Assembly: GCA_022827325.1 (NCBI GenBank)
Contig: JAJDTE010000067.1
Span: 41,120 to 105,119, forward strand
DNA length: 64,000 nucleotides
Reading direction: 5' to 3'
Source of the DNA: Gammaproteobacteria bacterium
GTDB lineage: Bacteria; Pseudomonadota; Gammaproteobacteria; Arenicellales; Poriferihabitantaceae
Shown here one piece after another: positions 167 through 47,498 of this stretch; within the stretch, counting starts at the first letter, position 1; every line of letters begins with the position of its first letter. Under the pieces are notes generated by a model, which had not been told where the DNA came from, did not search any database, and saw only the letters and a program-made list of their open reading frames with translations. The translations under genes were made by a program, and so were the position numbers.

Positions 167-180
167 CGCCTATCCATATG

Positions 181-11629: not shown

Positions 11630-11662
11630 TTGGCATCGCAAGATTCCCGACAGTCCGTACCA

Positions 11663-13159: not shown

Positions 13160-13169
13160 CCGTATCGAA

Positions 13170-28757: not shown

Positions 28758-30431
28758 TCAATCTTCCGTTGGTGCCTTGAACAGATCCTTGCGCAGGGTC
28801 ATCAGTGCCCCGGGATCGATCTTGCCCTGGATCACGGTCGTCTCGTTGCTGGCCAGCGCGTTCGTCAGTGCCGGGCCCATCTCACCCGGACCTTCGACCC
28901 AGATTCCCTGTCCGCCGCAAAGTTCGGCGAACTTGTCGAACCGTGGCGATGTGATTTCGGCTCCGAGAAGCCGCCCGCCGTAGAATTCCTGCTGATAGGC
29001 CATCTCGGCCCCCCAGGCCGCATTGTCGAGAACAACGATCACGACAGGCAAATCGTGGGAGATGGCCGTCTGGATCTCGATCATCGTATAGCCGATGGCG
29101 CCGTCGCCCATGACAGCCACGACCGGACGGTCGGGAGCCGCAGCCTTGGCTCCGATGGCGGCAGCCAGGCCAAAGCCCACCAGCCCGAAGTCCAGGGGCG
29201 TGATCAGGGACCTGGGCTCGAAATGAGCCAGCCGGTCGGCGGCCTGCAGGCAGGTATTTCCCGTGTCGAGTGTCACGATGGCGTTCTTCGGCAGAGCGTC
29301 CCTGATTTCGGCCAATGCGCGGCGTGGATGCAAGGGCAGCGTATCGATGGAGGCCTCCTCGGCGCGTTCTTCCCACAGGCTCTCCATTCCGGAATGGAAC
29401 TCCTCTCTCCATTCGTCGCAATCAGGGCGGCGGGCCGTCATGGACAATGCCTCGGCAGTCAGCCGGGCGTCGCCCTGGGCGGCAATCTCGGCCGGGAAGT
29501 AGCGACCCACCGCCGAGCCTTCGATGTCCACATGGGCGATGCGTGTATCCGGTCCCACGTAGTCATTGCTGTGGAAGGTGGAGTTGAACCCCAGCCGGGC
29601 GCCAAGGACAACCATCACATCGGCCTCCCTGGTCAGGCGGCTGGCCACCCGGTTGCCGCGTGGGCCCGCCTGTCCCGCAAACCACGGATGGCGATGAGGC
29701 ATGACGTCCGCATGGCCGGTCGAGGCGACCACCGGCACCTCCAGCCTTTCCGCCAGGGCCGTCAGGGCATCGCGCCCCGCGCCCCACTTGAAACCGGCGC
29801 CCGCGAAGATGACGGGGCGCCTCGCCTCCGCCATCATTCCCGCAATGGCGGCAACCTCATCGGGTGCCGCAGGCCCCGGCCGGACGAAATTCACCGGCGA
29901 GGGTTCCATGGCGGGAAGTTCGGCTGCAAAGAGATCCCGCGGCACATGCAGCACCACGGGACCGCGCCGCCCGCTATTTGCGAGCCGGATCGCGTCTTCG
30001 AGCATCGGGGGCAGTCGCGAGGGCTCGGTCACCAGGATCGAGCGCTTGCAGATCGGCGCAAACAGCGCCACCTGATCGACCTCCTGAAACGTATCCTTGG
30101 CAAGGTCGGCCCGGGTGATTGCCCCGGCGATGACCACCAGGGGTGAATAGGCCAGGTGCGCCTCGGCCACCGCGGTCACGATGTTAACCACACCCGGCCC
30201 TGCCTGCGCGCCCAGGACGACACCGGGCTTGCCGGTCATGCGGGCCCAGGCATCGGCCATGTGGCCTGCCGCACGTTCGTCCCTGGACCCGACATAGGCG
30301 ATCTCGCCACCCTGATACATGGCATCGTAAAGTTCGAGCATCGACCCGCCCAGCAGGCCGAACACTGTATCGATGCCATTGGCTTTCAGAACTCGATAGA
30401 CGGCTTCGCCGCCATTGATCATTGCCATCAT
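28758..30431 (-). CDS. Thiamine pyrophosphate-binding enzyme (acetolactate synthase large subunit / sulfoacetaldehyde acetyltransferase-like)
   Basis: 557 aa with the three-domain TPP enzyme pattern. The TPP-binding motif is GDGAIGYTMIEIQTAISHDLPVVIVVLDNAAWG. The start ATG immediately follows the upstream gene's TAA stop (TAAATG). Confidence 0.85.
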   Translation of the reverse strand: MMAMINGGEAVYRVLKANGIDTVFGLLGGSMLELYDAMYQGGEIAYVGSRDERAAGHMADAWARMTGKPGVVLGAQAGPGVVNIVTAVAEAHLAYSPLVVIAGAITRADLAKDTFQEVDQVALFAPICKRSILVTEPSRLPPMLEDAIRLANSGRRGPVVLHVPRDLFAAELPAMEPSPVNFVRPGPAAPDEVAAIAGMMAEARRPVIFAGAGFKWGAGRDALTALAERLEVPVVASTGHADVMPHRHPWFAGQAGPRGNRVASRLTREADVMVVLGARLGFNSTFHSNDYVGPDTRIAHVDIEGSAVGRYFPAEIAAQGDARLTAEALSMTARRPDCDEWREEFHSGMESLWEERAEEASIDTLPLHPRRALAEIRDALPKNAIVTLDTGNTCLQAADRLAHFEPRSLITPLDFGLVGFGLAAAIGAKAAAPDRPVVAVMGDGAIGYTMIEIQTAISHDLPVVIVVLDNAAWGAEMAYQQEFYGGRLLGAEITSPRFDKFAELCGGQGIWVEGPGEMGPALTNALASNETTVIQGKIDPGALMTLRKDLFKAPTED

Positions 30432-32843
30432 TTACTCCTCGGATCGGGGCCGCAGGTTTTGCGGGTCATAAAGGGCGTCGCTGTGGACGGTAACGGGGAT
30501 TTCACGGTTCAGGATCTGGACCGTCAGGCCATCGCGCGGGGTGCCTTCGCGGACAAAGAGCCAGCCCAGCGATTTCCCGATGGTGTAGCCGTAACCGCCA
30601 GAGGTGGTCAGGCCTACCGGCCTGCCGCCCCGCAGGACAGGTTCGCCGCCGTGAATATCCATGTCGTCGGCATGCAGTTCCGCGTAGAACAGTTCCCACT
30701 CCGGCGCGCGCCTCAACAAAGCCTCCCTGCCGATGAAATCACGGCCCTCGGTCGCGACAAATCGGTCAAGCCCCACGTCAAATGGACCGATATCCGGGGT
30801 GAGTTCGCCGGAGGCGGGAAAGGCTTTTTCCATCCGCATCCCGTTGAAGGCGTAGGAGCCAAGATCGGTCAGCCCGTGCTGCTCCCCGCCCTCGAACATC
30901 GCATCGTAAAGCTGCCCGATCCGCTCGAGAGGGACGTGGAGTTCCCAGCCCAACTCCCCGACGAAGGACATCCTGAGAGCGTAGCAGGGAATGCCCGCGA
31001 CCGCGATCTCCTGCCCCGACAGCCACGGAAATGCGCCATTGGACAGGTCGGCGTCCGTCAGTTCCGAAAGAATTCGCCGGGACATCGGCCCGGAAAGCGC
31101 CAACATTCCCCAGGCATCCGACCTGTCGACCAGCTGCACGTCATCGCCCGGGCGAATATGCGACTCGATCCACTGGAAGTCTGGACCCGAACGGGCAATG
31201 GCGGATCCGGTGAAATACCGGTCCCCCGCGATCCGCCAGATGGTCATCTCGGTTTCGAACCGCCCCCTGGGGGTCAGCAGGTGGTTCAGGCTGATCCGTC
31301 CGTCCGTGCGGGGAATGCGGTTCGCGGAGAGACGATCCAGCACCGCTCCCGCGTCCTGTCCCGTGATTTCGAACTGGGCAAAGGCCGAGAGATCAATGAC
31401 GCCGGCGGCGGTGCGTGCAGCCCTGGCCTCGCGCCTGGCGTTTTCATGTCAGGACTGGCGGCCCCAGCCGATCTTCTCCCGCTCGCCGACCTCGCCGAAA
31501 TAGCGCGGGCGTTCCCAGCCCGCGACTTCGCCAAAGACCGCCCCCTTGGCGGCCAGTCGCCCGTAGAGCGGATGCCTGCGTAACGGGCGCAGGCTTTCGA
31601 GCTGCCCTCCGGGGCAGGGAGTGTCATGCCGCCGCATGAATTCGTCCTTGGTTCTTTCGACGATATAGGTGTCGTCCGCAAAGCTGCAGAAGCGGCGGGG
31701 GTCGAAGCCGCGGGTGCTGATCTCGGCCTCGCCGTGCACCATCCAGTCCGCCAGGACCTTGCCCGCGCCGCCGCCCCAAGCGAGACCGATGGACGATCCG
31801 CAGGACAACCAGACATTCGGTGCTCCCGACGGGCCGACCAGCATGCCGCCGTCGGGCGTATGGGTAATGGCGCCGCGGACCACGCGCTTGATGCCCAGTT
31901 CGCCGAGTACCGGCATCTTTTCGAAAGCGACCGCCAGGAAATCGCCGATCGAGTCATAGTCGGCCGCGAACAACTCGTTCTCCGCTTCCCAGGGCGCGCC
32001 CTGGGGCATCTGCCAGACGGTCGGGCAGACATGGCCTTCGTAAATGCCGATCAGCCCCGATTTCTGCTCCTGCCGGATGTAGCCGCCAAAGGCATTGTCA
32101 CGCATCACCGGCAACTCGGGCCGTCCGGCGAATTCGGGCACCGTATCGGTGACGAGGTAGTGGTGAAGACAACTGACCGAAGGAATCCTGAGCCCGAACC
32201 ATTCGCCCACCTGATTGGCGTAGGACCCGGCGGCGACGATCACGTGCTCGGCCAGCACTTCGCCCTTTTCCGTTCGCAGGAGCCACAGATCGCCCCGGCG
32301 CGAGGCGCCCGTGACCCTGTTATGCCGCTCGATCATCGCCCCCCGTGCACGCGTGGCGGCGGCCAGTGCCATGGTGACGCCCGACGGATCGACATGGCCG
32401 TCCTCGAAGGTCTGGACCGCAGCCCTGATGTCCGAGGTCCTGTAGAACGGATTGCCCCTGGCCACTTCCGCGGGTCCGACCAGTTCCATGGGCAGATCCA
32501 GCAGCCTGCCGACGCCCATGATGGACTTCATCCAATCCACCTCGTCTTCGGTGGTGGCAATGCGAAAGCCGCCCACCCCGTGCCATCCGATGCTCTGACC
32601 GGTTTCCGCCTCGGCGCGTTGATAGACTTCGATCGATTTCTTGTTGATCCAGCCCATGATCCGGCTGCCCACCGCATGGGCGATCTGACCCGCGGCGTGC
32701 CAGGTGGAGCCGCTGGTGAGTTCCGCCTTTTCGAAGAGGATCGTGTCGGTCCACCCGTTTTCGGCCAGTTGGTACTGGGCCGCGACCCCCATGATCCCGC
32801 CGCCGATGATGGCCACCCGCGTGGTCCGGATCGCATCCGTCAT
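30432..32843 (-). pseudogene. FAD-dependent oxidoreductase + GcvT-fold (dimethylglycine/sarcosine dehydrogenase-like) gene interrupted by one in-frame TGA
   Basis: ORFs 31449-32843 (DAO domain, VAIIGGGIMGVAAQYQL) and 30432-31343 (GcvT C-terminal part) are in the same frame. The frame is 804 codons long and is broken only by TGA at 31449-31451. The intact paralogs next door are 800 and 807 aa. Confidence 0.8.
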
Positions 32844-35242
32844 GCAAAGGCCTCTTTCGCGGGCTTGAGGGTGGCGCGGGCCGCGAACCGGGTGCAGGCG
32901 ATCTCGACCTCGAAACCCGGGACGATGGTTTCGCGTGCCAGCCGGTCAAGCGGGGCTGTCAGCATCGCGAGCGCCACAGAACGCCCGAAGCGGTAACTCC
33001 ACGTCGCCGAGGTGATCTGGCCCGCCACGGCGCCGTCGAAAAAGACGGGTTCGTCATGGATGGGGATCGCGTCCGGTTGATCGAACAGGATCGATGCGAT
33101 GCGGCGGGCGGGTTCCTCGGCCCCCCGCAGGGCCTCTTCCCCCACGAAGCCCGATCCCATGGCACAGAATCGGCTGAGTCCGGCCTCGAGTGGTGTCGTG
33201 CCGGGCGTGAGTTCGTGGCCAAAGGCGCGAAAGCCGCTTTCGATCCGCAGGCTGCCACTGGCGTACAGCCCGGCATGGGCGGCGCCCGCGGCCACCAGAC
33301 GTTCATGCGCGGCCATCGCCATTTCAGCGGGAATATAGAGCTCGAATCCCTCTTCGCCGGTATAGCTGAGCCGCCCGGCCCAACCGCGTGCGAGTCCGAT
33401 TTCCACCGGGGCAAAATGAAACCGTTTGAGATCGGGAACCGGAGTGTTTGTCGTGGCCTGCAGTACATCCCGCGCTTGCGCCCCGGCAAGGCCAAGGATC
33501 GCGTAGCCGCTGGTGACATCGACGAATTCAACCCGAAGATTCCCACGGGTTTCCCGGATGCGCTTGAGGCCCCGCACCACTTCGCCCGCGCCGACGATCA
33601 TCAGGTAGCGGTCCGGCCCGTGGCGCTGCACCGTCAGGTCGCTTTCGATTCCTCCGCGCGCGTTCAGGATCTGGGTGTAGGCAATCCGACCCTCGGGAAT
33701 ATCCATCTGCGCGGTGCAAAGCTGATTGAGAAACGCACAGGCATCCGGCCCTTGAATCCAGATTTTGCCGAAGGCGCTCTGATCGAGAATGGCCGCCCCA
33801 TGGCGGCAGGCGTCCACCTCGCGGCCGACCTGTCCGCGCCAGGCGGGCACCCCGAAGGTCAGCGGCAGATGCGCCGCCTCGCCGTCGAAATGCACCGCCC
33901 GTTCCCAGCCGCCCCTGGCCTCGAACCGCGCGCCCGCTGCCAACAGCCCGGCATGCACCGGCGACCGGCGCTGCCCGCGTGCGGTCTCCATCGAGCGCCC
34001 CGGATAGGGATTTTCGTAGTGGCGTCCCAACACTTCGGGGATGCGCGACTCCAGCGCGCCAAGCACATTCATCTCGGGGCCGTAGCGTCGGATGTCGGCC
34101 TCGTTCAGTTCCATCGTTGGCTCACCGGCGATGATCCATTCCGCCATTGCCTTGCCCGCACCACCGGCCAATGCGATGCCGGTGGAGTTCATGCCGCCCA
34201 TCAGGAAAAGCCCCGGCACCTCGGGGCTTTCCCCGAGCATGAACTGGCCGTCAAGGGTAAAGCTCTCCGGCCCGTTCAGCAGCATCCGCACCTCTGCCCG
34301 CTCCAGGGCCGGGATTCGCCGCAGTGCGTTTTCCATCATCGGCATGAAATGATCCCAGTCCTCGTCCAGCAAGTCGAAGCTGAAATCGGCGGGCAGACGA
34401 TCCAGCGGCAGGCCCTTGGCATGCGGTTCGAAACACCCGACCAGCAGTCCCTCGACGTCGTCACGGGCGTAAAGACACCCGTCCTGGTCGTTCAGCGTGG
34501 GCAGATGGGCGCCGGGGCCGAGGGCCTGAATCTCGGGGATGGGCCTGGTCAGTATGTAGAAATGCTCGCAGGCATAGAGCGGCATATCGGCGCCCGCCAT
34601 CGCCGCCACCTCGCGCGACCAGAGCCCGCAGGCAACAACCACCTCCCCGGCCTCGATGACATGGTCACCCACTTCAACGCCCGATATCCGCCCGGATTTC
34701 CTTCGCAGGCCGGTAACTCTTGTGTCCTCAAAGAAGCGCACCCCCTTCGCCTTTGCCCCTTTCGACAGGGCAAGCGCCACATCCGAGGGATTCACCCGCC
34801 CGTCGGCAGGCGACCAGACGGCGCCCATCACGTCATCCGTTTCGATCAGGGGCCACAGGTCCCTGGCGCGGGCGGCATCGACCACCTGCGCTTCCAGCCC
34901 GAAGGCACGGCCCAACGACACCTGCCGTTTGATATTGGTAAGCCGATCCTCATTCGTGGCGAGCGTGAGGCTGCCGGTTTGTACCCAACCCGTGGCCTGC
35001 CCGGTCTCCCGCTCCAACTTGCCGTAGAGGTCCACAGAATAGTCTATGAGCCTGGTCAGTGTGGCCGACGGCCGCAATCTGCGCACCAGTCCTGCGGCAT
35101 GCCACGTGGTGCCCGAGGTCAGTTTGGCACGTTCCAGCACCACGATGTCCTGCCGCCCCTCGCGGGCGAGGTGGTAGGCGACAGAACAACCGATCACACC
35201 GCCACCGATGATGACCGTGCGGGACTGGCCGGGAAGCGTCAC
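32840..35242 (-). CDS. FAD-dependent oxidoreductase fused to aminomethyltransferase (GcvT) fold, dimethylglycine/sarcosine dehydrogenase-like
   Basis: 800 aa. N-terminal dinucleotide-binding motif VIIGGGVIGCSVAYHLA and a DAO domain. The C-terminal GcvT-like folate-binding region contains SYTGEEGFELY. Confidence 0.88.
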   Translation of the reverse strand: MTLPGQSRTVIIGGGVIGCSVAYHLAREGRQDIVVLERAKLTSGTTWHAAGLVRRLRPSATLTRLIDYSVDLYGKLERETGQATGWVQTGSLTLATNEDRLTNIKRQVSLGRAFGLEAQVVDAARARDLWPLIETDDVMGAVWSPADGRVNPSDVALALSKGAKAKGVRFFEDTRVTGLRRKSGRISGVEVGDHVIEAGEVVVACGLWSREVAAMAGADMPLYACEHFYILTRPIPEIQALGPGAHLPTLNDQDGCLYARDDVEGLLVGCFEPHAKGLPLDRLPADFSFDLLDEDWDHFMPMMENALRRIPALERAEVRMLLNGPESFTLDGQFMLGESPEVPGLFLMGGMNSTGIALAGGAGKAMAEWIIAGEPTMELNEADIRRYGPEMNVLGALESRIPEVLGRHYENPYPGRSMETARGQRRSPVHAGLLAAGARFEARGGWERAVHFDGEAAHLPLTFGVPAWRGQVGREVDACRHGAAILDQSAFGKIWIQGPDACAFLNQLCTAQMDIPEGRIAYTQILNARGGIESDLTVQRHGPDRYLMIVGAGEVVRGLKRIRETRGNLRVEFVDVTSGYAILGLAGAQARDVLQATTNTPVPDLKRFHFAPVEIGLARGWAGRLSYTGEEGFELYIPAEMAMAAHERLVAAGAAHAGLYASGSLRIESGFRAFGHELTPGTTPLEAGLSRFCAMGSGFVGEEALRGAEEPARRIASILFDQPDAIPIHDEPVFFDGAVAGQITSATWSYRFGRSVALAMLTAPLDRLARETIVPGFEVEIACTRFAARATLKPAKEAFA

Positions 35243-36528
35243 TCAAACGCCCCGTCGCGGACCATGTCAGACAGCGTTGCGCGAAACGCCCCAAGCGCCT
35301 CGTCGATCAGATCGGGAGTATGGGCAGCAGATGTCAGCCCCGACGTATGGGACATCATGTCCACGCCGTGCGCCAGCATGCCGTCGCGATAGGCGCGGAC
35401 CTGCGCCTTCGGCAGCCCGCGGATCTCGGCGGGGGTCAGGGTATCCGGGCTGCCTCGCCCGAAATACAGGTGGATGACCGAACTGTCGCCATAGGCGAGG
35501 CCCGATATGCCCGATTCGGCCATTGCCGCGTTCATTCCATCGCGCATCCGGGTTGCCATGGCATCGGCCTTGGCCTGCGCTTCCCCTGACGCAAGCAGAG
35601 GCATCGCGGCACAGGCGGCGGCAGCGACCAATGGGGATCCGTTGAATGTGCCCTTGTGGCTGACGGCCGGCGCGAAACCTTCACGCTCCGTGGCATTGTT
35701 CATCAGTTCCATGATCTCGGCCCGTCCGCAGACCGCGCCCCCCGGGAGCCCCCCGGTAACGATCTTGGCCAGGGTGGTCAGGTCCGGCTCGATCCCGTCA
35801 CGTGCCTGACGTCCCCCGGGGGACCAGCGGAACCCGGTAATGATCTCGTCAAAGATCACCACCGCGTTGAAGCGGCGCGCCACGTCGCGAAGGGCGCGCA
35901 GGGTATCCGTGGGCAAGGGCACGCACCCGTAATTCGCCCCGGAAGCCTCGATAATCACGGTGCCGATCCGATCGTCCTGCAATGCGCTTTCCATCGCCCG
36001 GGGGTCGGCGGCGCACACCTGGACCAGATCGTCGATCGCAGCGGGAATGCCCAGGGAAGCGGCCTGGCCGCTTCCGGGTGTTGCCCCTTTCAGCACCTGA
36101 TCGTGCCAGCCATGATAATGGCCGTCCACCCGCAGTACATGCTCCCTGCCCGACCACGCCCGCCCAAGCCGGATGGCCAGCATTGTGGCCTCGGTTCCGG
36201 ATGCCGTGAAACGGGTGCGTTCAGCACAGGGATAAAGCCGGTTGATCCATTCCGCCCAATGAATCTCGGCCTCGTGGCAATCCGCCGAGAAGATCGAGCG
36301 CCCGGCCTGCTTCTGCACGGCCTCCACGATCGCCGGGTGGCAGTGACCCAGCATCTGGCTGGCTGATCCCATCTTGAAGTCGATATAGCGCCGTCCTTCG
36401 GCGTCCCATTTTTCAGCGCCCAATGCCCGGTCTATGAAAATCGGATGCGGTTCGCGAAATCGAAGCTCGTGGCTGATCCCGCCGGGCAGGGCCCTTTTCG
36501 CCCGCAAGGAAAGGGATTTGCTCGTCAT
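35239..36528 (-). CDS. Class-III aminotransferase (glutamate-1-semialdehyde aminomutase-like)
   Basis: 429 aa with RAKRALPGGISH, FTASGTEATMLAIRLGRA and FDEIITGFR. It has 4-nt overlaps with both neighbouring genes. Confidence 0.85.
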   Translation of the reverse strand: MTSKSLSLRAKRALPGGISHELRFREPHPIFIDRALGAEKWDAEGRRYIDFKMGSASQMLGHCHPAIVEAVQKQAGRSIFSADCHEAEIHWAEWINRLYPCAERTRFTASGTEATMLAIRLGRAWSGREHVLRVDGHYHGWHDQVLKGATPGSGQAASLGIPAAIDDLVQVCAADPRAMESALQDDRIGTVIIEASGANYGCVPLPTDTLRALRDVARRFNAVVIFDEIITGFRWSPGGRQARDGIEPDLTTLAKIVTGGLPGGAVCGRAEIMELMNNATEREGFAPAVSHKGTFNGSPLVAAAACAAMPLLASGEAQAKADAMATRMRDGMNAAMAESGISGLAYGDSSVIHLYFGRGSPDTLTPAEIRGLPKAQVRAYRDGMLAHGVDMMSHTSGLTSAAHTPDLIDEALGAFRATLSDMVRDGAFE

Positions 36529-38069: not shown

Positions 38070-38316
38070 TATTTCATGAGAAAAACATTGTCCCAAAGAA
38101 ATAGAAGCCAAATTTCAGTTTCAAATCATAGTACAAAATGAATTTGACCTTTTGCAGGAAATATTGAAATTTATGACTGATAAAGATCAATTGACGACAT
38201 GACATGTACATGGCCATGAGTACTCAGACCACAGATCGAAAAAACGGTTTTCCGCCTTCACCCCGAAACCAGGCGAAAGCGCAGGCAGCGGACCCTCTGC
38301 ACAGGAATTGACCGGG
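38070..38316 (-). promoter_or_regulatory. AT-rich intergenic region inside the catabolic supercluster (probable internal promoter/operator)
   Basis: This is the only long gap (about 250 nt) in an otherwise overlapping gene chain, and it is conspicuously AT-rich at 38075-38200. It contains perfect palindromes TCAATTGA (38187-38194) and CATGTACATG (38203-38212). Confidence 0.4.
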
Positions 38317-40740
38317 TCATCCCCGGCAACGGTGATTTTCGGGATCATAAAATGCCTTTTCCGAGATGGTCGCCCTGCGGCCCTCACCCAATATCTCGAT
38401 TTCGAGATCAAGTCCGGTCAGCGGCACACGGCCCTGGAGGTATCCCAACGCGACCACTTTGCCAATGCGATACCCGCAACTGGCGGAAGTGACATAGCCA
38501 ACACGTTTCCCCCGATGGAGAATCGGATCACCGGGCATGGGTTCGCTGTCCGCAATGTCGACGATCAATCTGACGAATCGCCATTCCGGACCAGCCGCCC
38601 CTTGTCCCAAGACGGCTTCCCGACCGATGAAACCCGTCCTTTGGAGGTCGACATGCTTTTCCAACCCGGCGTCGAACATCGTGTATTCAACACCCAGCTC
38701 AGCCCCCCAGCCGTGATAGGCTTTCTCGATTCTCATGGCGTTCAACGCGTAGGAACCGAAATCGACCAGGCCGTGTCGGGTTCCAGCCTGACAAATCGCC
38801 AGATAGACCTGTTCAAGGTTCTCCGAGGACAGATGCAGTTCCCAGCCGAGTTCACCCACGTATGACACGCGCATCGCGGTGGCGGCAAAGTCTGCAATCC
38901 GAATTTCCTCTACTGACATCCACGGCATGTTTTCTCTCGACAGGTCTGCGTCGCACAAGCCCGACAGCAGATCCCTGGATCCGGGTCCCATCACCATCAG
39001 CACCCCGTCACGTCGGCTTCCGCGACGCAGCTGCACCGAGTCGTCTTCGGGCAGATAGCGGCACAGCCAGTCGTAGTCACGCTGATCGGCGAGAGTTGGC
39101 CCGCACAGCAGATACTGATTCCGGTCCAACCTGGCAATGGTCGCTTCACTCCAGATCCTTCCTTTGGCGGTCAGCATGTATGCGAGCCGGACCCGGCCGA
39201 CTCCGGGCAGGCGCCCGCAGAAGACCCGGGCGAGAAATGCGGTCGATCCCGGACCCTCGATTTCAAACTTGGTAAAGCCGCCGTGATCCATGATCCCGAC
39301 TGCGTCCCGTACCGCCTCGCACTCACGGCGGACCGGGTCACGCCAGGGTTCGATGGTACGGAAACTGAGAAGATCCGAATGGCCCCGATGATCCTGATCG
39401 AACCAGAATGCCCGTTCCCAGCCGGCGATCTGGCCGAATACGGCGCCCCTGTTCCAGAGTGCCTGATACAGCGGTGTTTTCTGCACAGGCCTGCCGGACC
39501 GGATGTTCCGGTTGGGAAATGGAATGGCGTATTGCAAATCATAGAGTTCGACAATGCGCCGCCGGGCATATTCCGGCGTTGCCCAGTCGCCGAAACGCCT
39601 CGGATCCCAGGCGGCATGGTCCCATTCGGTTTCACCTGCAGTAATCCATTCGGCGATCGCCTTGCCGACCGCGGCCGAATGGGTGATGCCGACCTGGATA
39701 CCACAGGCATGATAGAAATCGGGCAGGCCGCCGGCCGGTCCGCAAAGCGGCAGCGCGTCCGGTGAATATGCGATCGGTCCGTTTACAAAACGCTGAATCC
39801 GTATGTCGGCGAGTAGTGAAACATGCACTGCCGCCCGCCCGATCAGGTCTACGATGTCATCGACCGAATCCTCGAACAGGGAATGCGCGAATTCATCGGG
39901 AAGGCCATCAGGAAACGCCAGTCTCCCGGGATGTCCATAGGAGCCGAACAGCAGGCCGGCACGCTCACGGCGCAGGTAAAACCGGATGTCGGGATCGCGC
40001 ACCAACGGGAACAGGGCCTTGTCTTCGTCCAGGGCATCGATCGACTCGGTGACAATATACTGATGCTCGAGTGTTGCGATGGGCAGGCTTTGGCCCGTCA
40101 TAGCCGCAATCCTGTTGCCGTAAAATCCGGTGGCGTTGACGATTGCTTCGCAAACCACCTCTCCCCTGTCGGTTTCCACCACCCATTCTCCACCCGTATT
40201 TCGCCTGATCCCGATCACTGTGGTGAATCGCGCGACCTCGGCGCCGGCGTCACGTCCCCCCTTGGCCAGTGCCTGGGTCAGCTGACTTGGGTCTATATCA
40301 CCCTCGTAAGGATCGTAAATGCCGCCAATCACCGTATCTCCGGCCTTGTAGTATGGATGCAATGCTTCCATTTCAGGCGGGTCCAGCATCGTCAGTTCGT
40401 AGCCTGCCGATTTCGATACACCGACGACATGCCGGAACGAATCCATGCGGTCGCGGGTATGTGCCGGCCAGAATGCGCCGGTATGACGATAGGTGATCGG
40501 AGAGTCCGCCGCTTCAGACAGATTCCGGTAGAGTTGCCAGGCATAGTTGCCGGCGCGCATTCCGAGCCAGCTGTTGGCGTAGGTCGGTACGTTTCCGGCC
40601 GCGTGCCAGGTTGACCCTGAGGTCAACTCGTTTTTTTCAATCAACAGGCAATCGCGGACTCCAGCCAGGCAGAGATGGTACAGGCAGGAAGCGCCGACCA
40701 CGCCGCCGCCGATGATGACCACCCTCGCACCGGTTCTCAC
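38317..40740 (-). CDS. FAD-dependent oxidoreductase fused to GcvT fold, dimethylglycine/sarcosine dehydrogenase-like
   Basis: 807 aa. N-terminal VVIIGGGVVGASCLYHL and a DAO domain. The C-terminal GcvT-like region contains SYVGELGWELH. Confidence 0.88.
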   Translation of the reverse strand: MRTGARVVIIGGGVVGASCLYHLCLAGVRDCLLIEKNELTSGSTWHAAGNVPTYANSWLGMRAGNYAWQLYRNLSEAADSPITYRHTGAFWPAHTRDRMDSFRHVVGVSKSAGYELTMLDPPEMEALHPYYKAGDTVIGGIYDPYEGDIDPSQLTQALAKGGRDAGAEVARFTTVIGIRRNTGGEWVVETDRGEVVCEAIVNATGFYGNRIAAMTGQSLPIATLEHQYIVTESIDALDEDKALFPLVRDPDIRFYLRRERAGLLFGSYGHPGRLAFPDGLPDEFAHSLFEDSVDDIVDLIGRAAVHVSLLADIRIQRFVNGPIAYSPDALPLCGPAGGLPDFYHACGIQVGITHSAAVGKAIAEWITAGETEWDHAAWDPRRFGDWATPEYARRRIVELYDLQYAIPFPNRNIRSGRPVQKTPLYQALWNRGAVFGQIAGWERAFWFDQDHRGHSDLLSFRTIEPWRDPVRRECEAVRDAVGIMDHGGFTKFEIEGPGSTAFLARVFCGRLPGVGRVRLAYMLTAKGRIWSEATIARLDRNQYLLCGPTLADQRDYDWLCRYLPEDDSVQLRRGSRRDGVLMVMGPGSRDLLSGLCDADLSRENMPWMSVEEIRIADFAATAMRVSYVGELGWELHLSSENLEQVYLAICQAGTRHGLVDFGSYALNAMRIEKAYHGWGAELGVEYTMFDAGLEKHVDLQRTGFIGREAVLGQGAAGPEWRFVRLIVDIADSEPMPGDPILHRGKRVGYVTSASCGYRIGKVVALGYLQGRVPLTGLDLEIEILGEGRRATISEKAFYDPENHRCRG

Positions 40741-40742
40741 GA

Positions 40743-41447
40743 CTAGGCTTCATTCAGCAAATGACCGTACCCCGGAACCGCATCCCGGATTCCGGCTGCG
40801 CGCAGGGTCTGCCAGTAAACGGCGGCGTTGCAGGCAATGATGGTTTTCCCGGTTTCCCGCTCGAGTTCCTCGATCAGACCGATCAAGGGCAGGGCAGTGC
40901 CGACCTGTGCGATCGCATCGCAGTCGGAGGCAGCCAGTTCGTGAACCAGTTCGCGAATCCGGGACAGTGGCGTTTCGCAGATAGCCTCCAGGCTGGCCGC
41001 TTCGGTTCCCCTTACCGCAACTGCCTCGAATCCGCCATTCTCGATATTGGTCCTGACCACCCGGTTGACTTCCGCGTTGAACGGGGTGAGCACCGCAATC
41101 CGGCGGGCCCCCACCGCCTGCAGTGCATTCTGGAGTGCGACCGACGCATTGAAAACCGGGATACCCAGCCTGGCGGCCAGCATATCGCAACGGGCCGCCA
41201 GCTTGGCAACACCGTCCGGTCCGGCATCAGTGGTCAGGCCGATTGCCAGGGCCGCCGGTTTCACATCCATCAGTTTTTCCGCTTCTTCCGCCAGGTCGTC
41301 GGATATGTGGCTGCCGCCGAGACGAAAGCGTTGCATTTGATTGGTCACGCCGACGGGACGGAGCAATTCGAGTTCCGGCTGGACTACGCTGTTCATCGCC
41401 GGGGTCATGACGCCGATAATGGCGCGTGGTGCTAGCGTGTCCGGCAT
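40743..41447 (-). CDS. Asp/Glu/hydantoin racemase-superfamily protein (maleate isomerase / arylmalonate decarboxylase / EutA-like)
   Basis: 234 aa. The layout is typical of the COG3473-type family: IGVMTP...N, a central RIAVLTPF and a C-terminal GKTIIACNAAVYWQTLR. The catalytic residues are unclear. Confidence 0.6.
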   Translation of the reverse strand: MPDTLAPRAIIGVMTPAMNSVVQPELELLRPVGVTNQMQRFRLGGSHISDDLAEEAEKLMDVKPAALAIGLTTDAGPDGVAKLAARCDMLAARLGIPVFNASVALQNALQAVGARRIAVLTPFNAEVNRVVRTNIENGGFEAVAVRGTEAASLEAICETPLSRIRELVHELAASDCDAIAQVGTALPLIGLIEELERETGKTIIACNAAVYWQTLRAAGIRDAVPGYGHLLNEA

Positions 41448-41884
41448 TATGCTTTCTCCCGGAGATATTGGTCGAGCGCCAACTGGGCGTCACGGTAGAT
41501 CCTGTCACCAATGATTGATTCGAGTTCGTCGGCATCGGCGGGGTCGCAGTCAAACTCTCCCTGCCAGATCCCGAGCGTTCCGGCACCCTCGGTGATTTCA
41601 ATGAAACGATGGCAGGAAACATAGTTCCTGCATCGCAATGGGGATTCGATGATGTCGTAGACGTAAAAGTGTTCGAGATCCGAATGCGCCAGCAGGGTTT
41701 CCCGAAACTGCGTGCCATCCGCGATGCCGAGCACCCGGATCGATCCGACTTCGGTCGGCGAGCCCGTTTCCATACGTGCGTCCGTGACCCCCGGATTCCA
41801 GTCGGCCACGCGGTCGAAGCGGCGCACGGTGGACCAGACCCTGTCGATGGGCGCATGGATGACTACACTTCGCATTACTCTCAT
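41447..41884 (-). CDS. SRPBCC (START/polyketide cyclase-dehydrase-like) family protein
   Basis: 145 aa. The N-terminus IHAPIDRVWSTVRRFDRVADWNPGV and the overall pattern are typical of SRPBCC ligand-binding proteins. Confidence 0.6.
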   Translation of the reverse strand: MRVMRSVVIHAPIDRVWSTVRRFDRVADWNPGVTDARMETGSPTEVGSIRVLGIADGTQFRETLLAHSDLEHFYVYDIIESPLRCRNYVSCHRFIEITEGAGTLGIWQGEFDCDPADADELESIIGDRIYRDAQLALDQYLREKA

Positions 41885-43395
41885 GTTTTTTCCTCGATCA
41901 GCCTGATGTCGAACTCCCTGCGTATCGCGATTTCAGCCCGGCGCGGCAGATGTTCCGGCGGCTCCTGGCACAGGATATCCTGAACTCGCCGGTGCGCGCG
42001 CTGCCAGATCGACCGACTTCCCGATTCGACCCATTCCGGCACCGACTGGCGATCACCCAGTTGCGGATAAACGTACTCGGTCATCATCAAATCCAGAGTC
42101 TGGGGTTCACCAAGATAATGACCTTCACCACGGACCACGCGATCAATACTGCCGATGTCGAGAAAATCATCGCTGACTTCGATACCGCGCACAGTGCGCA
42201 GGACGGCGCCACACATTTCATTGTCGATGACCAGCGTCTCGGGGGACGCCACCATGATTGAGCCGAGCATTCCTACCGACAGGTTGATCATGTCGGCACC
42301 GGCCTGTGCGGCCAACGCGACACTATAGCCTTTTTCGTAACCGGCCTGGATGTCACCTACCTTCGAGTCGGTCATGCCGGCAGCAACCGTGGACGGCATT
42401 TCAAGCCTGCCAAGCAATTGCGCGGCGGCGGCATTGGCCAATGCCGATTCACCACTGCCACCGGTCATGGCCCCGGTGCGCAAATCCGAAATGAACGGCA
42501 GGAAGGCATGGATGCAAGCATGCCCGGGCTTTATCGCATCGACTACAACCGTTCCGGCAATCGATTCCGCCAGCCCCTGCGCCAGCGCACCTGCCAGCGA
42601 GGCCGGACTGGTGGCACCGGCCTGACCGGCGGTACATATCTGCAGCGGCATCCCGGCTGTGATCGCGGCACGCATGATTTCCACGCCTTCGGGGGAAAAT
42701 TTCAGCGGGGAAACGACATGCACGATGATGCCCATGCAGAACGGCTGCCGGCGAAATCCACCGTCACATCCCAGGGCCAGGTCGAACAGCCTGCAGACCT
42801 GCGCCACGTGCGCGGCATTGTCGAAACTGACGCCGATCGGTTTGCCGGTTGCCTTCAGGCAGGCAAACGCGGTATTGATATCAAGGTCGAGCGGGGTCGG
42901 CATGTCACGTGCTATCAGCAAACGGATGCCGTAGTGCACGTTTTCGCAGGCATCCAGTACCCTGGTAACCTGATACAGGTCAGCCAGGGTCGAGTCACGG
43001 TACTCGCCGGTTTCGGAATCAAGCGTTTGTACTGCCGCACCACCGGTACCGATATGAACGTAGCCGCCACCGATATCCAGACCCCGGTTTTCGTCGAAGC
43101 CGGGCAAGCTGACCCGGCCAGAGGCGCGCTTCAGCGCCCGTTCGGCCAGTATCCGCGGGATGGTCAGGCGACCGTCATCGCGCAGCCCCGCACCTTTGTC
43201 CAGCAATCGTTTTTCCAGCCATTCCGGTGATCCGGCAACACCCACGGCCTGTAGAATTTCGAAAGCGCTGTCGATTATCCGGTCGCATTCGCGATCACCC
43301 AGCGGTTGATAACGGCCGCCCTTGTACAGGGTCACGGGGGCAGTCCGGCCGGCAGATACGGGCGGTGCCCGGCGACGGGCGGAACGGGTCATCAC
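41881..43395 (-). CDS. Trimethylamine methyltransferase (MttB) superfamily protein, non-pyrrolysine type, copy 2
   Basis: 504 aa and a clear paralog of copy 1. Shared blocks include RESTLADLYD/RDSTLADLYQ, ISAGQAGATSPATIAGSLAQ/CTAGQAGATSPASLAGALAQ and GHYLGE. There is no in-frame TAG. Confidence 0.8.
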   Translation of the reverse strand: MMTRSARRRAPPVSAGRTAPVTLYKGGRYQPLGDRECDRIIDSAFEILQAVGVAGSPEWLEKRLLDKGAGLRDDGRLTIPRILAERALKRASGRVSLPGFDENRGLDIGGGYVHIGTGGAAVQTLDSETGEYRDSTLADLYQVTRVLDACENVHYGIRLLIARDMPTPLDLDINTAFACLKATGKPIGVSFDNAAHVAQVCRLFDLALGCDGGFRRQPFCMGIIVHVVSPLKFSPEGVEIMRAAITAGMPLQICTAGQAGATSPASLAGALAQGLAESIAGTVVVDAIKPGHACIHAFLPFISDLRTGAMTGGSGESALANAAAAQLLGRLEMPSTVAAGMTDSKVGDIQAGYEKGYSVALAAQAGADMINLSVGMLGSIMVASPETLVIDNEMCGAVLRTVRGIEVSDDFLDIGSIDRVVRGEGHYLGEPQTLDLMMTEYVYPQLGDRQSVPEWVESGSRSIWQRAHRRVQDILCQEPPEHLPRRAEIAIRREFDIRLIEEKT

Positions 43396-44762
43396 CTGAC
43401 CTCTTTCCAGACCCGGTCAAGAGCGCGCTTCAGCCGTCCGAGTGCGAGATCGATTTCCGAACGCTGAATGACCAGGGGCGGCATGAAGCTGATTCGGTCA
43501 GGAGGTATCGAACGCAGATAGAGTCCTTCGGCGTGCGCGGCATCCTGGACCCGCTGGCCAACCCTGAGTTCCGGGTCGAATTGCTCGCGGGTCTTTTTGT
43601 CCTTGACCAGCTCGATGCCGCAAAACAGGCCAATGCCACGGGCGTCCCCGACCAGGGGATGGTCCATGAGCGCATGGCACCCGTCGAGGAAATGGCCCGA
43701 GACTTCGTGGACCCGTCCAATCAAATCCATTTCTTCATAGATGTCCAGGGCCTCCAGAGCAACTGCTGCCCCGACCGGGTGTCCGGAGTAGGTAAAGCCA
43801 TGCCCGAGTACGCCGACCACATCGGAGTTGTGCATCATGTCCTGATAGAAGTCCTCCTTGAACATCAGCGCTGAAAGCGGAAAAAACGCAGCGGTCAGCG
43901 CCTTCGCGCAGGAAATGGAGTCGGGCTGCAGATTGAAGGCCTCGGCCCCCCACCAATGCCCGGTGCGCCCAAATCCGCAGACGACTTCGTCGACGTGAAA
44001 ATGGATATCGTATTTTCGAATGACTGCCTGCATCTCATCCCAGTATCCACTGGGTGGCAGGATTGCACCGCCACCGCTTTGCATCGGTTCCGCCACGAAG
44101 GCGGCGATACGATCAGGCCCGGTTTCAAGCACCAGGTTTTCGAACTCCTGCGCCATCCGTGCGGAAAATTCCCGCTCGCTTTCGCCATCCTGATGGAAGC
44201 GGTAGTAGTTTGGCGTGGACAGCTTGAGAAATTCTTCCATCGGCAAGCCGAATCGCTGGTGCATATGCGGCTGGCCGGAAAGGCTGACCGCGGCCACCGT
44301 ATTGCCGTAATACCCTCTCCACCGGGAAATCAGCTTTCGGCGATGCGGCTGTCCGCGCCCAATATTCCGGTACCAGAGAAACTTGATCATCGCGTCGTTC
44401 GCTTCCGATCCGGAACACTGAAACATGACCCGGTCCATCGGCACAGGCGTCATGCCCACCAGCCGGGCTGCAAGTTGGGCCACCTTGGGGTGGGAGCGCC
44501 CGTAAAATGTCGGCGCGAACGGCAAGGTGTCCATCTGCCGTTTGGCCGCCTCGGCGAGGCGGTCGTTGTGATAACCGAGTGAAGCACAGCCGAGTCCCGA
44601 AAAGCCGTCGATCAACTCCCGGCCATCTTCGGTCCTGATATAGACCCCATGACCCTCGACCACCATCGCCACGGGACCGTCCTGTTGGTGCTGGCGCAGA
44701 TTCGTCTGTCCGTGAACGTGATGGTTGCGGTCCAGGTCAAGAAGAGACTCAACTGTCGACAT
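43392..44762 (-). CDS. Class-III (omega) aminotransferase, beta-alanine/putrescine--pyruvate aminotransferase-like
   Basis: ORF 43392-44903; the likely start is ATG 44762 (MSTVESLLDLDRNHHVH). Motifs SGSEANDAMIKF, VAEPMQSGGGAILPP, HVDEVVCGFGRTG and the SCAKALT PLP-lysine region. Confidence 0.88.
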   Translation of the reverse strand: MSTVESLLDLDRNHHVHGQTNLRQHQQDGPVAMVVEGHGVYIRTEDGRELIDGFSGLGCASLGYHNDRLAEAAKRQMDTLPFAPTFYGRSHPKVAQLAARLVGMTPVPMDRVMFQCSGSEANDAMIKFLWYRNIGRGQPHRRKLISRWRGYYGNTVAAVSLSGQPHMHQRFGLPMEEFLKLSTPNYYRFHQDGESEREFSARMAQEFENLVLETGPDRIAAFVAEPMQSGGGAILPPSGYWDEMQAVIRKYDIHFHVDEVVCGFGRTGHWWGAEAFNLQPDSISCAKALTAAFFPLSALMFKEDFYQDMMHNSDVVGVLGHGFTYSGHPVGAAVALEALDIYEEMDLIGRVHEVSGHFLDGCHALMDHPLVGDARGIGLFCGIELVKDKKTREQFDPELRVGQRVQDAAHAEGLYLRSIPPDRISFMPPLVIQRSEIDLALGRLKRALDRVWKEVR

Positions 44763-44993
44763 GTTCAGGTCCTGGCGGATTCCCGTGAATTGTTTCGGGG
44801 ATTGCAACCACCATGGGATGGAGGAAGCTCGGAAAAACTTGCCCTTGTGTCCGGCGACTGATTCCGGGAAATTCAGCCGGCCAGGCCCACTGAAGTTCCG
44901 CATTCTTGAATTGCCGCCCGATCACCCTGCGGAGCAGGTCATTGTTGATGGTATGCTACAATTCATGAACTTCAATCACATTTTTCTCATGTT

Positions 44994-45941
44994 TTGTTGA
45001 ATATTTCTAACAAAAGGCCATCACTGGACATCAAGCACCTTGAGATGATGGTGGCCCTGGCCGAAACGCCGCGTGTTACGGAGGCCGCGGAAAAACTGCG
45101 CATCACTCCTTCGGCGCTCTCGCACCGGATCAAGGAGGTGGAAAGACGCCTCGACGTACCGCTGTTCGGACGCATTCACAAGCGATTGCGCCCTACCCCG
45201 GCTGCGGACTATCTTGCCCAGGTGGCCAGCAGGTTGCTTGCCGACATGTTACGAGCAGAAGATGATGTTCGCAGGATGGCGCGTGGAGTGAGCCATGTGG
45301 TCCGGCTCGTGGTCGATCTGTACAATGCCTATCAGTGGCTGCCGGAATTCTTGCGCCATTTACGTGAAGTCGAACCGGAAATCGGCATTGAAGTCAGGGT
45401 AGCGGCGGCGCGAAACACGCTTTCCAGCCTGCACGAACGCACGGTCGATCTGATCATTGTATCCGGCGAAATCAATCAGGCCGGCACCGTCATGGAGCAC
45501 TTGTTTGACGATCAGTTGAGTTTCATCATGTCGCCGAACCATCGACTTGCGGGAAATGCCTATATCGAAGGGAGTGACATTGTCGGCGAGGATTTCATCA
45601 CCTACACCCGGGTTCCCGAGCCGGACCGCGAATATGCACGTCTGTTTCGGCCCAGCAATTGCTATCCCAACTGGACCGAAACGGTGGAGGTGCCCGAAGC
45701 CATTGTCGAGATGGTTGCTGCCGGGCTAGGCATTTCGGTACTTTCTTCCTGGGCGGTTTCCGGGGCAATCGGGTCAGGGCGCATTGTTGCCGCCCGCGTG
45801 GGTGAACAGGGCATCACCCTGCCCTGGTATGCCGTCACACGGAGCGGGACGAGTTTCGAGGACCAATGCAATCAGAGACTGGCCGCGATACTGGCCCGAT
45901 GGTGCCGGGACAATGGCGGAATCATGCGGAGGACAGGGTGA
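44994..45941 (+). CDS. LysR-family transcriptional regulator
   Basis: 315 aa, apparently with a TTG start. The N-terminal wHTH is IKHLEMMVALAETPRVTEAAEKLRITPSALSHRIKEVE. The gene is divergent from the catabolic supercluster. Confidence 0.88.
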   Translation: MLNISNKRPSLDIKHLEMMVALAETPRVTEAAEKLRITPSALSHRIKEVERRLDVPLFGRIHKRLRPTPAADYLAQVASRLLADMLRAEDDVRRMARGVSHVVRLVVDLYNAYQWLPEFLRHLREVEPEIGIEVRVAAARNTLSSLHERTVDLIIVSGEINQAGTVMEHLFDDQLSFIMSPNHRLAGNAYIEGSDIVGEDFITYTRVPEPDREYARLFRPSNCYPNWTETVEVPEAIVEMVAAGLGISVLSSWAVSGAIGSGRIVAARVGEQGITLPWYAVTRSGTSFEDQCNQRLAAILARWCRDNGGIMRRTG

Positions 45942-46798: not shown

Positions 46799-46874
46799 TG
46801 AAAAAAACGGAATCTCATGTTCACCCATGGTTCAGGGCCACCGATCACATTGACAACTCTTTCCCCGGTGACAC

Positions 46875-47498
46875 ATGAAAACTATGAAGATCGGTGCCCT
46901 TATCTTTCCCGGCTTTGAACTGCTGGACCTGTTCGGTCCGTTGGAAATGTTCGGACTGTACTCGGAGAATTTCGACATCCGGCTGGTTGCGGAGACCGGC
47001 GACCCCGTCACGAGCAGCCAGAAGCCGGTCTCTTTGCCGGACCACACTTTTACCGACGGCGAACGGTTCGACCTGCTGCTGGTCCCCGGAGGAAAGGGGA
47101 CTCGGCAAGCGGTGAATCAACCGGTCGTCATGGAATGGTTGCGAAAACAGTCCGAGGGCGCCCAGCTGATTACCTCGGTGTGCACCGGGTCCGCCCTCCT
47201 CGCCCAAGCCGGCATCCTGGATGGCCGGAGAGCCACCACCAACAAGAATGCCTTCAACTGGGTGTCCGGTTTCGGCAACGGGGTGCAGTGGATCAGACAG
47301 GCGAGATGGGTGCAGGACGGAAACATCTACACTTCATCCGGCGTCTCCGCGGGCACGGACATGTCCCTGGCGGTGATCGCCGATGTTCTCGGTATGGACA
47401 AGGCGCTGCAGGCCGCGGACTGGGCTGAATACTTCTGGAACGAGGACCCGGGAAACGATCCCTTCGCCGTGAAGGCGGGACTGGTGCCGGATCGGTGA
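46875..47498 (+). CDS. DJ-1/PfpI family protein
   Basis: 207 aa. IGALIFPGFELLDLFGP and the nucleophile-elbow motif ITSVCTGSALLAQAG. Confidence 0.85.
   Translation: MKTMKIGALIFPGFELLDLFGPLEMFGLYSENFDIRLVAETGDPVTSSQKPVSLPDHTFTDGERFDLLLVPGGKGTRQAVNQPVVMEWLRKQSEGAQLITSVCTGSALLAQAGILDGRRATTNKNAFNWVSGFGNGVQWIRQARWVQDGNIYTSSGVSAGTDMSLAVIADVLGMDKALQAADWAEYFWNEDPGNDPFAVKAGLVPDR

Follow-up and report, generated by a model that had tools for sequence, protein, structure and literature searches.

Two adjoining operons pairing MttB-family methyltransferases with dimethylglycine dehydrogenase-like flavoenzymes in a gammaproteobacterial sponge symbiont

Genes and operon structure

The 64,000-nt stretch of contig JAJDTE010000067.1 analysed here (hereafter the window) contains, at positions 28758–45941, ten co-directional minus-strand genes together with a divergently transcribed LysR-type regulator. 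They encode two methyltransferases of the MttB superfamily, three flavoenzymes related to dimethylglycine dehydrogenase and sarcosine dehydrogenase (DMGDH/SARDH), two class-III aminotransferases, an enzyme dependent on thiamine pyrophosphate (TPP), and two further proteins with the SRPBCC and the arylmalonate decarboxylase (AMDase) fold. The locus had been described in an earlier note on this DNA, and all of its genes were found again at the same positions. On balance, we consider it probable that they represent two independent, horizontally mobile catabolic operons lying side by side in a gammaproteobacterial sponge symbiont, each of which degrades a different quaternary (trimethylammonio-type) amine other than glycine betaine.

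The genes are packed as tightly as had been claimed. Counted from the TPP-enzyme end, successive junctions measure 0, −4, −4 and −4 nt, followed by a 247-nt AT-rich spacer (38070–38316) and then by junctions of +2, −1, −4 and −4 nt, and the overlaps are kept in four independent assemblies. The spacer, which stands out by its size and composition (41% G+C vs ~62% for the window), separates module 2, with ~65% G+C, from module 1, with ~59%. Module 2 consists of the methyltransferase MttB1, an aminotransferase resembling D-phenylglycine aminotransferase and HemL, the dehydrogenases DG2 and DG3, and the TPP enzyme; module 1 comprises the LysR regulator and, divergent from it, an omega-aminotransferase, MttB2, the SRPBCC protein, the AMDase-fold protein and the dehydrogenase DG1. 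Paralogs in the locus are only distantly related, with identities of 41% between MttB1 and MttB2, 30–35% among the three dehydrogenases and 21% between the two aminotransferases.

The spacer is presumed to be the promoter region of module 2, and in its proximal part it can be aligned with the sequence preceding MttB1 in other genomes. A consensus sigma-70 and terminator scan of the spacer gave no terminator-like site or other usable signal, and an Rfam scan for riboswitches and other RNA elements found none in the cluster, the only hit being the transfer-messenger RNA (tmRNA) at 180–537. Genomes with a divergent LysR gene carry an ATGAG-N5-CTCAT palindrome, which resembles a LysR box, ~60 nt upstream of MttB1 (L002 at ~9930–9950, L020, L022 and L024; L numbers denote comparison loci, examined to ±10 kb). 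The same palindrome is degenerate in the window (38070–38200), where the LysR gene of module 2 is missing. Directly before the MttB1 start codon, a CTCATG element is kept in nearly all aligned genomes.

Pfam confirmed each domain call that had been made for the locus, including those of both MttB-family open reading frames (ORFs). Module 2, like module 1 transcribed from the minus strand, begins with MttB1 (36525–38069), a non-pyrrolysine MttB-superfamily methyltransferase of 514 aa that matches PF06253 with 449.8 bits and is 74–81% identical to proteins of Roseobacteraceae and Rhizobiaceae. Its second gene encodes a 429-aa class-III aminotransferase (35239–36528; Pfam Aminotran_3). The earlier description called it "GSA-aminomutase-like". 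Identity with HemL (glutamate-1-semialdehyde 2,1-aminomutase, GSA aminomutase) was rejected, as the protein scores 284 and 272 bits against HemL models with cut-offs of 398 and 527, and its closest solved homolog is D-phenylglycine aminotransferase, at 250 bits compared with 207 for HemL. DG2 (32840–35242, 800 aa) and DG3 (30432–32843, ~803 aa, with one in-frame TGA) share the Pfam architecture DAO+FAO_M+GCV_T+GCV_T_C, and the closest solved homologs of DG2 are rat and human dimethylglycine dehydrogenase (426 bits, E 3e-126).

The last gene of module 2 (28758–30431) encodes the 557-aa TPP enzyme of the acetolactate-synthase/Xsc superfamily, with Pfam TPP_enzyme N, M and C domains, which is 82% identical to the product of the last gene of the module 2 operon in Roseobacteraceae and Rhizobiaceae. 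Its closest solved homologs are acetohydroxyacid synthase and oxalyl-CoA decarboxylase, at ~235–248 bits. It has the three-domain TPP architecture of sulfoacetaldehyde acetyltransferase (Xsc) and of the acetolactate synthase large subunit, and Xsc is its top-scoring curated family (NCBIfam models NF005713/TIGR03457). The scores of 407 bits against a cut-off of 620, and of 393 against 676 for the second Xsc model, fall under the curated thresholds, and we rejected Xsc identity on that ground; the acetolactate synthase score is 364. Unlike in Xsc systems, pta, a sulfite exporter and taurine genes are not linked to module 2.

Module 1 opens with a 456-aa class-III aminotransferase of the omega-amine:pyruvate type (43392–44762; Aminotran_3), which scores 566 bits against NCBIfam NF004767, over the cut-off of 517, has omega-transaminases as its closest solved homologs (400–417 bits), and is linked to MttB2 also in L009 and L025–L027. 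MttB2 itself (41881–43395, ~503 aa) is the second non-pyrrolysine MttB-superfamily member, with 297.9 bits to PF06253. The third gene (41447–41884) encodes a small SRPBCC ligand-binding-fold protein of 145 aa (Polyketide_cyc2, PF10604), whose only solved relatives are uncharacterised proteins, XoxI and the PYR/PYL receptors. The 234-aa product of the fourth gene (40743–41447) has the AMDase/maleate-isomerase fold (PF17645, 70 bits, spanning residues 48–233), so that its designation as a racemase-fold protein was right as far as the fold goes. It lacks both canonical catalytic cysteines: the position of AMDase Gly74, which is Cys in racemases, is occupied by Leu and that of Cys188 by Gly, and both residues are invariant in nine orthologs that are 65–75% identical across classes. 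A canonical role as in other members of this superfamily (AMDase, Asp-Glu racemase, maleate isomerase) was rejected for want of these cysteines, and identity with EutA because the protein scores 71 bits against a cut-off of 318.

DG1 (38317–40740, 807 aa), the fifth gene of module 1, has the same four Pfam domains as DG2 and DG3, and in other genomes always lies behind or near MttB2, the SRPBCC gene and the AMDase-fold gene. All three dehydrogenases, DG3 being read across its stop codon, combine this architecture with the histidine-containing flavin-attachment motif TSG(S/T)TWHAAG (TSGSTWHAAG in DG1, TSGTTWHAAG in DG2), which places them in the DMGDH/SARDH family. Rat and human DMGDH and Arthrobacter DMGO share both the architecture and the TWHAAG motif. 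In contrast to those enzymes, the three paralogs are strongly divergent from one another and accompany MttBs that are not of the glycine betaine type, and because of the latter their N-methyl substrates are probably not dimethylglycine and sarcosine.

The divergent LysR-type regulator of module 1 (44994–45941, plus strand; HTH_1 and LysR_substrate domains) is 52–71% identical to the LysR beside lone copies of module 1 in L009, L014 and L025–L027. Downstream of it, and on the same strand, lies a gene of the 3-hydroxyisobutyrate dehydrogenase (HIBADH) family (45866–46798). It passes the equivalog model TIGR01692 marginally, with 297.5 bits against a cut-off of 291.6, in agreement with the earlier call, and a gene of this type adjoins the module 1 core in several genomes, including at L007 and L014. 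In two comparison loci, a 578-aa betaine-aldehyde-dehydrogenase-like aldehyde dehydrogenase (L004 3349–5085; L005 3350–5086) with ~1.5 kb of extra sequence lies between the HIBADH and DJ-1 genes. The aldehyde dehydrogenase is missing from the window, where merely 77 nt (46798–46875) separate the two genes. On one metagenome contig, a sulfatase-family gene (L026 8174–9613, plus strand; arylsulfatase/choline-sulfatase-like, under cut-offs) directly follows module 1; it was seen once and is a possible hint of a sulfated substrate.

Independence, distribution and transfer of the two operons

The earlier note had treated the locus as one supercluster of two related modules. This view does not survive comparison with other genomes, in which the modules occur apart, each with its own LysR regulator, and their aminotransferases belong to unrelated subfamilies. 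Module 2 alone, always with its own divergent LysR, is present in Falsiruegeria litorea R37, Phaeobacter gallaeciensis, a Rhizobiaceae metagenome-assembled genome (MAG), a 7.2-Mb genome and Tropicibacter sp. Alg240-R139, and in two of these loci an amidase gene and a small partner gene are inserted before the TPP gene. Full module 1 alone (LysR, divergent omega-aminotransferase, MttB2, SRPBCC, AMDase-fold protein and DG1) was found in Denitrobaculum and on three metagenome contigs, and the four-gene core of MttB2, SRPBCC, AMDase-fold protein and DG1 in Tropicibacter, Ruegeria, a Puniceispirillales MAG, a Granulosicoccaceae MAG and other MAGs. Both modules are present in Tropicibacter sp. Alg240-R139, where they lie on separate contigs. 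Because each module recurs separately with a LysR of its own, modules 1 and 2 are independent operons, and their juxtaposition, in which module 2 has no LysR of its own, is specific to this symbiont lineage.

The closest relatives of the locus identify the host. MttB2 is 96% identical to its counterparts in the complete chromosome OZ241969.1 (Ca. Poriferihabitaceae; Gammaproteobacteria, Arenicellales), in a MAG labelled Gammaproteobacteria, and on a contig binned as Dehalococcoidia, which is probably mis-binned. A sponge-associated metagenome scaffold shows the same layout at 97–99% identity. The window carries at 180–537 (plus strand) a one-piece tmRNA with the tag ANDDNYALAA (RF00023, 222 bits). 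Alphaproteobacteria have two-piece tmRNAs, and a one-piece molecule fits a gammaproteobacterial host. The host is therefore a gammaproteobacterial, Ca. Poriferihabitaceae-like sponge symbiont, neither an anaerobe nor a roseobacter. Module 2 proteins are 74–87% identical to those of Roseobacteraceae and Rhizobiaceae. Considering that these alphaproteobacterial-like proteins reside in a gammaproteobacterial host and that the two modules differ in G+C content, horizontal acquisition across classes appears to be the simplest reading.

Literature searches for a matching pathway, for catabolism of taurine betaine or beta-alanine betaine, for MttB in sponges and for the homarine operon returned nothing that matches either block, in keeping with the earlier statement that the combined architecture is not a described pathway.

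MttB substrate sites and the corrinoid partner

Both MttB proteins exceed the PF06253 cut-off of 25 across nearly the whole profile and match the MtgB structure 2QNE, with 189 and 150 bits. They were correctly described as lacking pyrrolysine: neither ORF contains an in-frame TAG, both being uninterrupted; where 7XCL has its pyrrolysine, MttB1 aligns with Ile and MttB2 with Met; and scores of 326 and 287 bits lie below the cut-off of 525 for TIGR02369, the equivalog model of the pyrrolysine trimethylamine methyltransferase. Like MtgB of Desulfitobacterium hafniense and MtpB, MtcB, MtyB and MthB of Eubacterium limosum, the window proteins are PF06253 TIM barrels without pyrrolysine, and the substrates of those enzymes are quaternary amines. 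The characterised enzymes, in contrast, come from anaerobes, where each forms part of a three-component system that includes its cognate corrinoid protein.

The glycine betaine site of MtgB is formed by Y97, R312, H348 and F356 (Picking et al. 2026, PMC13080624). Every family member whose function is known keeps R312 and acts on an acidic quaternary amine (PMC13080624), and in the characterised enzymes the residue binds the acid group of the substrate. At the four positions, MttB1 and its orthologs have G/S/Q/L and MttB2 and its orthologs G/T/L/I(L), with Ser or Thr in place of the arginine. As a control, the MttB encoded beside MtgC in Paracoccus has Y/R/H/G, keeping three of the four residues; elsewhere, the R312 position is Arg in Sinorhizobium meliloti 4YYC and Tyr in the pyrrolysine enzyme 7XCL. 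Because all four residues of the MtgB site are missing, MttB1 and MttB2 are not glycine betaine methyltransferases. Their substrates may lack a carboxylate placed as in the known substrates. The earlier note had guessed at beta-alanine betaine, gamma-butyrobetaine or a methylated taurine, and the missing R312 equivalent argues weakly against simple carboxylate betaines.

These residues bear directly on the possibility that the locus duplicates ordinary glycine betaine catabolism, in which MtgB would be followed by dimethylglycine dehydrogenase and sarcosine dehydrogenase. Glycine betaine demethylation is the sole function so far shown for MttB-family proteins in aerobic marine bacteria (PMC12478193), the best solved homolog of DG2 is dimethylglycine dehydrogenase, and module 2 contains exactly one MttB and two DMGDH-like genes, as this route requires. 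The window MttBs, however, keep none of the four binding residues and are only 24–29% identical to the MtgC-linked Paracoccus MttB; the conserved aminotransferase and TPP genes have no role past glycine; and each module is a separate unit with its own regulator in other genomes. We consequently rejected glycine betaine as the substrate and regard a duplicated glycine betaine route as very unlikely.

No corrinoid partner is encoded at the locus. In the window, Pfam searches covering essentially every long ORF turned up no domain for binding B12, pterin or homocysteine. Six-frame phmmer searches were run on the window and all comparison loci, using as queries the four modules of E. coli MetH as well as MtgC, DUF1638, MetF2, MtgD and RamA from a Paracoccus methylovorus plasmid; none of these had a match in the window or any orthologous locus. 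A corrinoid gene lies within 10 kb at none of the ~27 loci orthologous to either module and is adjacent at five of eight distant, anaerobe-type MttB loci. The searches were able to detect such genes where present, as they recovered B12-binding proteins beside the distant MttBs of L018 and L035–L038 (E 1e-30 to 1e-52) and homocysteine-binding proteins beside MttB in Hyphomicrobiales loci. The statement that the window holds no B12-binding or MtgA-like gene was thus correct, and the anaerobe-type three-component arrangement, with an adjacent corrinoid protein and a methylcorrinoid:tetrahydrofolate (THF) methyltransferase, does not occur there.

The absence is real in cis, yet it is not the anomaly for which it had been taken. 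Growth of Ruegeria pomeroyi on glycine betaine needs an MttB-family protein together with MtgC (SPO2160) and MtgD (SPO1863) (Mausz et al. 2025, PMC12478193). Genetics and proteomics established that MtgC, a corrinoid protein, and MtgD, a pterin methyltransferase, are distally encoded and double as parts of a split methionine synthase (PMC12478193). A single genome may contain as many as seven PF06253 paralogs, for which use of this core with further methylated compounds has been proposed, mtgC is found in alpha-, gamma- and deltaproteobacteria, and genes for the later, THF-dependent demethylation steps often lie near MttB/mtg genes (all PMC12478193). Since the R. pomeroyi MttB-family protein shares a distal MtgC and MtgD, a missing corrinoid gene in cis is no longer surprising, and a B12 carrier protein is most likely encoded elsewhere in the genome.

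The resemblance to the MtgBCD system of R. pomeroyi DSS-3 extends further. Both involve a non-pyrrolysine MttB, corrinoid and methyl-THF methyltransferase genes that are not adjacent, several MttB paralogs per genome, and downstream demethylation of the DMGDH/SARDH type, the R. pomeroyi system being an aerobic marine proteobacterial one. The window operons differ in that their MttBs are only distantly related to the proteobacterial MtgB-type protein (24–29% identity) and lack its substrate-binding residues, in that they also encode aminotransferases, a TPP enzyme, an SRPBCC and an AMDase-fold protein, for none of which glycine betaine catabolism has a use, and in that the host is a gammaproteobacterial sponge symbiont. 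A useful reference for the aerobic system is plasmid p1 of Paracoccus methylovorus (NZ_CP070369.1 366832–383452; L040), which brings the complete proteobacterial set together: MttB is divergent from genes for MtgC, DUF1638, a two-part methylenetetrahydrofolate reductase (MetF2), MtgD and a RamA-like ASKHA protein, with genes for a GlxA-family regulator and a polyamine-type ABC transporter as neighbours. In our window, cobalamin use is hinted at locally by one gene only, a cobD/cbiB cobalamin-biosynthesis gene (47571–48557, minus strand) 1.6 kb from the cluster, which stands alone between a DJ-1 family gene and a class-II 3-deoxy-D-arabinoheptulosonate-7-phosphate synthase gene, with no other cob genes nearby.

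Alternatively, the absence could be taken at face value. The MttBs would then pass the methyl group straight to THF, possibly bound to the GcvT domain of the adjacent dehydrogenase, or else to a novel carrier, for which the SRPBCC/AMDase-fold pair is a candidate, and a corrinoid would be needed nowhere in the genome. Corrinoid and pterin methyltransferase genes are absent from the window and from ~27 orthologous loci but often adjacent at distant MttBs, the MttB genes always adjoin THF-binding GcvT-domain proteins, and module 1 has two strongly conserved accessory proteins without an assigned role. If true, this would be a new oxygen-compatible mechanism in the MttB superfamily. It has to be set against the fact that every characterised family member methylates a corrinoid (PMC13080624) and that the R. 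pomeroyi enzyme requires the distal MtgC and MtgD (PMC12478193). In addition, module 2 has neither the SRPBCC/AMDase-fold pair nor a corrinoid gene, so the pair is no general substitute; the roseobacters with these modules come from a group in which a split methionine synthase provides MtgC and MtgD; and cobD is nearby. We hold corrinoid independence to be highly improbable and prefer a partner encoded in trans.

Proposed pathway and state of the locus

With partners encoded in trans, the gene content suggests the following sequence of events. Demethylation would start with the MttB of each operon, which would move one methyl group onto a corrinoid protein in its Co(I) state; a pterin-binding methyltransferase would pass the group on to tetrahydrofolate, both partners being encoded elsewhere in the genome. 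These MtgC-like and MtgD-like proteins would be common to methionine synthesis and to other MttB paralogs. The DMGDH/SARDH-like flavoenzymes, two in module 2 and one in module 1, would oxidise the remaining N-methyl groups, and their GcvT domains would capture the carbon as 5,10-methylene-THF. The class-III aminotransferase would then convert the freed primary amine into a carbonyl compound, to be processed in module 2 by the TPP enzyme and in module 1 by the HIBADH-family dehydrogenase, joined in close relatives by an aldehyde dehydrogenase. This order of steps follows the logic proposed in the earlier note, for which the gene families were all confirmed and which appears to hold in general terms. 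Since a glycine end product would need neither an omega-aminotransferase nor a TPP enzyme, the scheme too points away from glycine betaine. We see in it uncharacterised variants of a known scheme; the new questions that they raise concern their substrates and what the SRPBCC and AMDase-fold proteins contribute.

Several points weigh against this interpretation. Module 1 has one DMGDH-like enzyme, and a trimethylated substrate leaves two methyl groups after MttB; one of the two module 2 dehydrogenases contains a stop codon, so that the pathway may be incomplete here; and the SRPBCC and cysteine-less AMDase-fold proteins have no role in the scheme. The TPP enzyme and the module 2 aminotransferase fall under every curated family cut-off. 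Arg occupies the R312 position in only 6 of the 105 nearest full-length MttB cluster representatives, and its lack therefore groups MttB1 and MttB2 with the uncharacterised majority of the family and is a poor guide to any specific substrate. The case for trans-encoded MtgC, MtgD and RamA is drawn from other bacteria and not from the genome of this lineage. Finally, no transporter is kept beside either module, the neighbours (ABC, TRAP, TctA or none) varying by genome.

A more specific assignment would have module 2 degrade a trimethylethylammonium compound substituted at position 2 (taurine betaine or a choline ester, for instance), with a final Xsc-like cleavage to acetyl phosphate, and module 1 an omega-amino-acid betaine such as beta-alanine betaine. 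In its favour, the TPP enzyme has Xsc as its top family match, and module 1 combines an aminotransferase of the omega-amine:pyruvate type with a neighbouring dehydrogenase that passes the HIBADH model and, in close relatives, with an aldehyde dehydrogenase. One metagenome contig has a sulfatase gene after module 1, and taurine betaine and beta-alanine betaine are measured marine metabolites. The Xsc score, however, is well under its cut-off and barely over that of acetolactate synthase, and genes for handling sulfite, phosphate or acetyl phosphate are not linked. The likeness of the module 2 aminotransferase to an alpha-amino-acid enzyme, D-phenylglycine aminotransferase, would rather suggest a 2-oxo acid and a decarboxylase. 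Carboxylate betaines should call for an R312 equivalent, which neither MttB has, and module 1 offers a single demethylating dehydrogenase in place of two. Taken together, we judge these particular substrates unlikely, and the broader assignment to quaternary amines other than glycine betaine preferable.

The stop codon in DG3 raises the question of whether the operons still function. As the earlier note had stated, DG3 is TGA-interrupted: it forms one reading frame with a single TGA at 31449–31451, aligned with a Trp conserved in orthologs, including that of Falsiruegeria, and indicating a TGG-to-TGA change. Selenocysteine or a programmed split was rejected, as the TGA replaces the conserved Trp inside the GcvT domain and not at a domain border. 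The portion past the stop is 76–77% identical to intact orthologs, which equals the divergence among the intact orthologs themselves, and the upstream part compared with L005 gives a dN/dS of 0.11. Because the distal half is no more diverged than intact orthologs are, the stop would be very recent, a sequencing error, or tolerated by read-through.

DG1 is damaged in relatives of the window. In OZ241969.1 (L004 13982–16234), a 2.25-kb insertion with 70% G+C splits the gene at residues 420–442; it encodes a 739-aa protein, an unusual fusion of a DruA-like domain (PF14236, Druantia defence protein) with Tn5-type Tnp_DNA_bind and DDE domains. In L006, DG1 lacks residues 420–631 through an internal deletion. 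Such lesions, together with the premature TGA in DG3, the absence from the window of the aldehyde dehydrogenase that L004 and L005 have beside the HIBADH gene, and the loss of the LysR gene of module 2 with degeneration of its operator-like palindrome, could mean that a host-restricted symbiont is losing the block and that the pathway is no longer functional. Selection speaks otherwise. Comparison of the window with L005 yields dN/dS values of 0.07–0.22 for all nine genes tested, and the genes are under purifying selection. The region of DG3 past the stop has diverged no faster than intact orthologs have from one another, the remaining reading frames are intact with their overlaps preserved in the four assemblies, and the lesions differ by genome, as expected of occasional hits rather than of general decay. 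We thus consider a decaying, non-functional cluster improbable; the region is in flux but not generally decaying.

Functional operons of this kind would matter beyond the symbiont. A search of the MttB superfamily yields 5,975 clusters at 50% identity; substrates are known for few of its members, almost all of them from anaerobes. We think it possible, with considerable doubt, that the two operons represent the first routes of non-carboxylate quaternary amine catabolism in aerobic bacteria to start with an MttB-family enzyme. Their compact layout, their conservation in several marine lineages of alpha- and gammaproteobacteria and their presence in culturable strains (Falsiruegeria litorea R37, Phaeobacter gallaeciensis, Tropicibacter) make the operons a practical entry to the question of which abundant methylated amines, marine or host-derived, feed into one-carbon metabolism and into the demand for cobalamin in aerobes and sponge symbionts. 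New specificities are predicted for the DMGDH-like N-demethylases, the D-phenylglycine-aminotransferase-like transaminase, the Xsc/ALS-like TPP enzyme (ALS, acetolactate synthase) and the cysteine-less AMDase-fold protein.

Other genes of amine metabolism occur in the window, namely a pyridoxal phosphate-dependent decarboxylase resembling diaminobutyrate/aspartate decarboxylase (2843–4396, plus strand), a gamma-aminobutyrate aminotransferase that passes its equivalog cut-off (15641–17044, minus strand) and an arginase-family protein (57044–58003, plus strand). In Tropicibacter (L039), module 2 adjoins polyamine biosynthesis genes. A 722-aa ORF (59903–62071, plus strand) encodes a cofactor-independent phosphoglycerate mutase (Metalloenzyme and iPGM_N domains) fused to a C-terminal NUDIX domain. 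Unrelated to the operons is a conserved trio of genes at 11528–15103 (plus strand), encoding circularly permuted ATP-grasp, Alpha-E domain and transglutaminase-like proteins.

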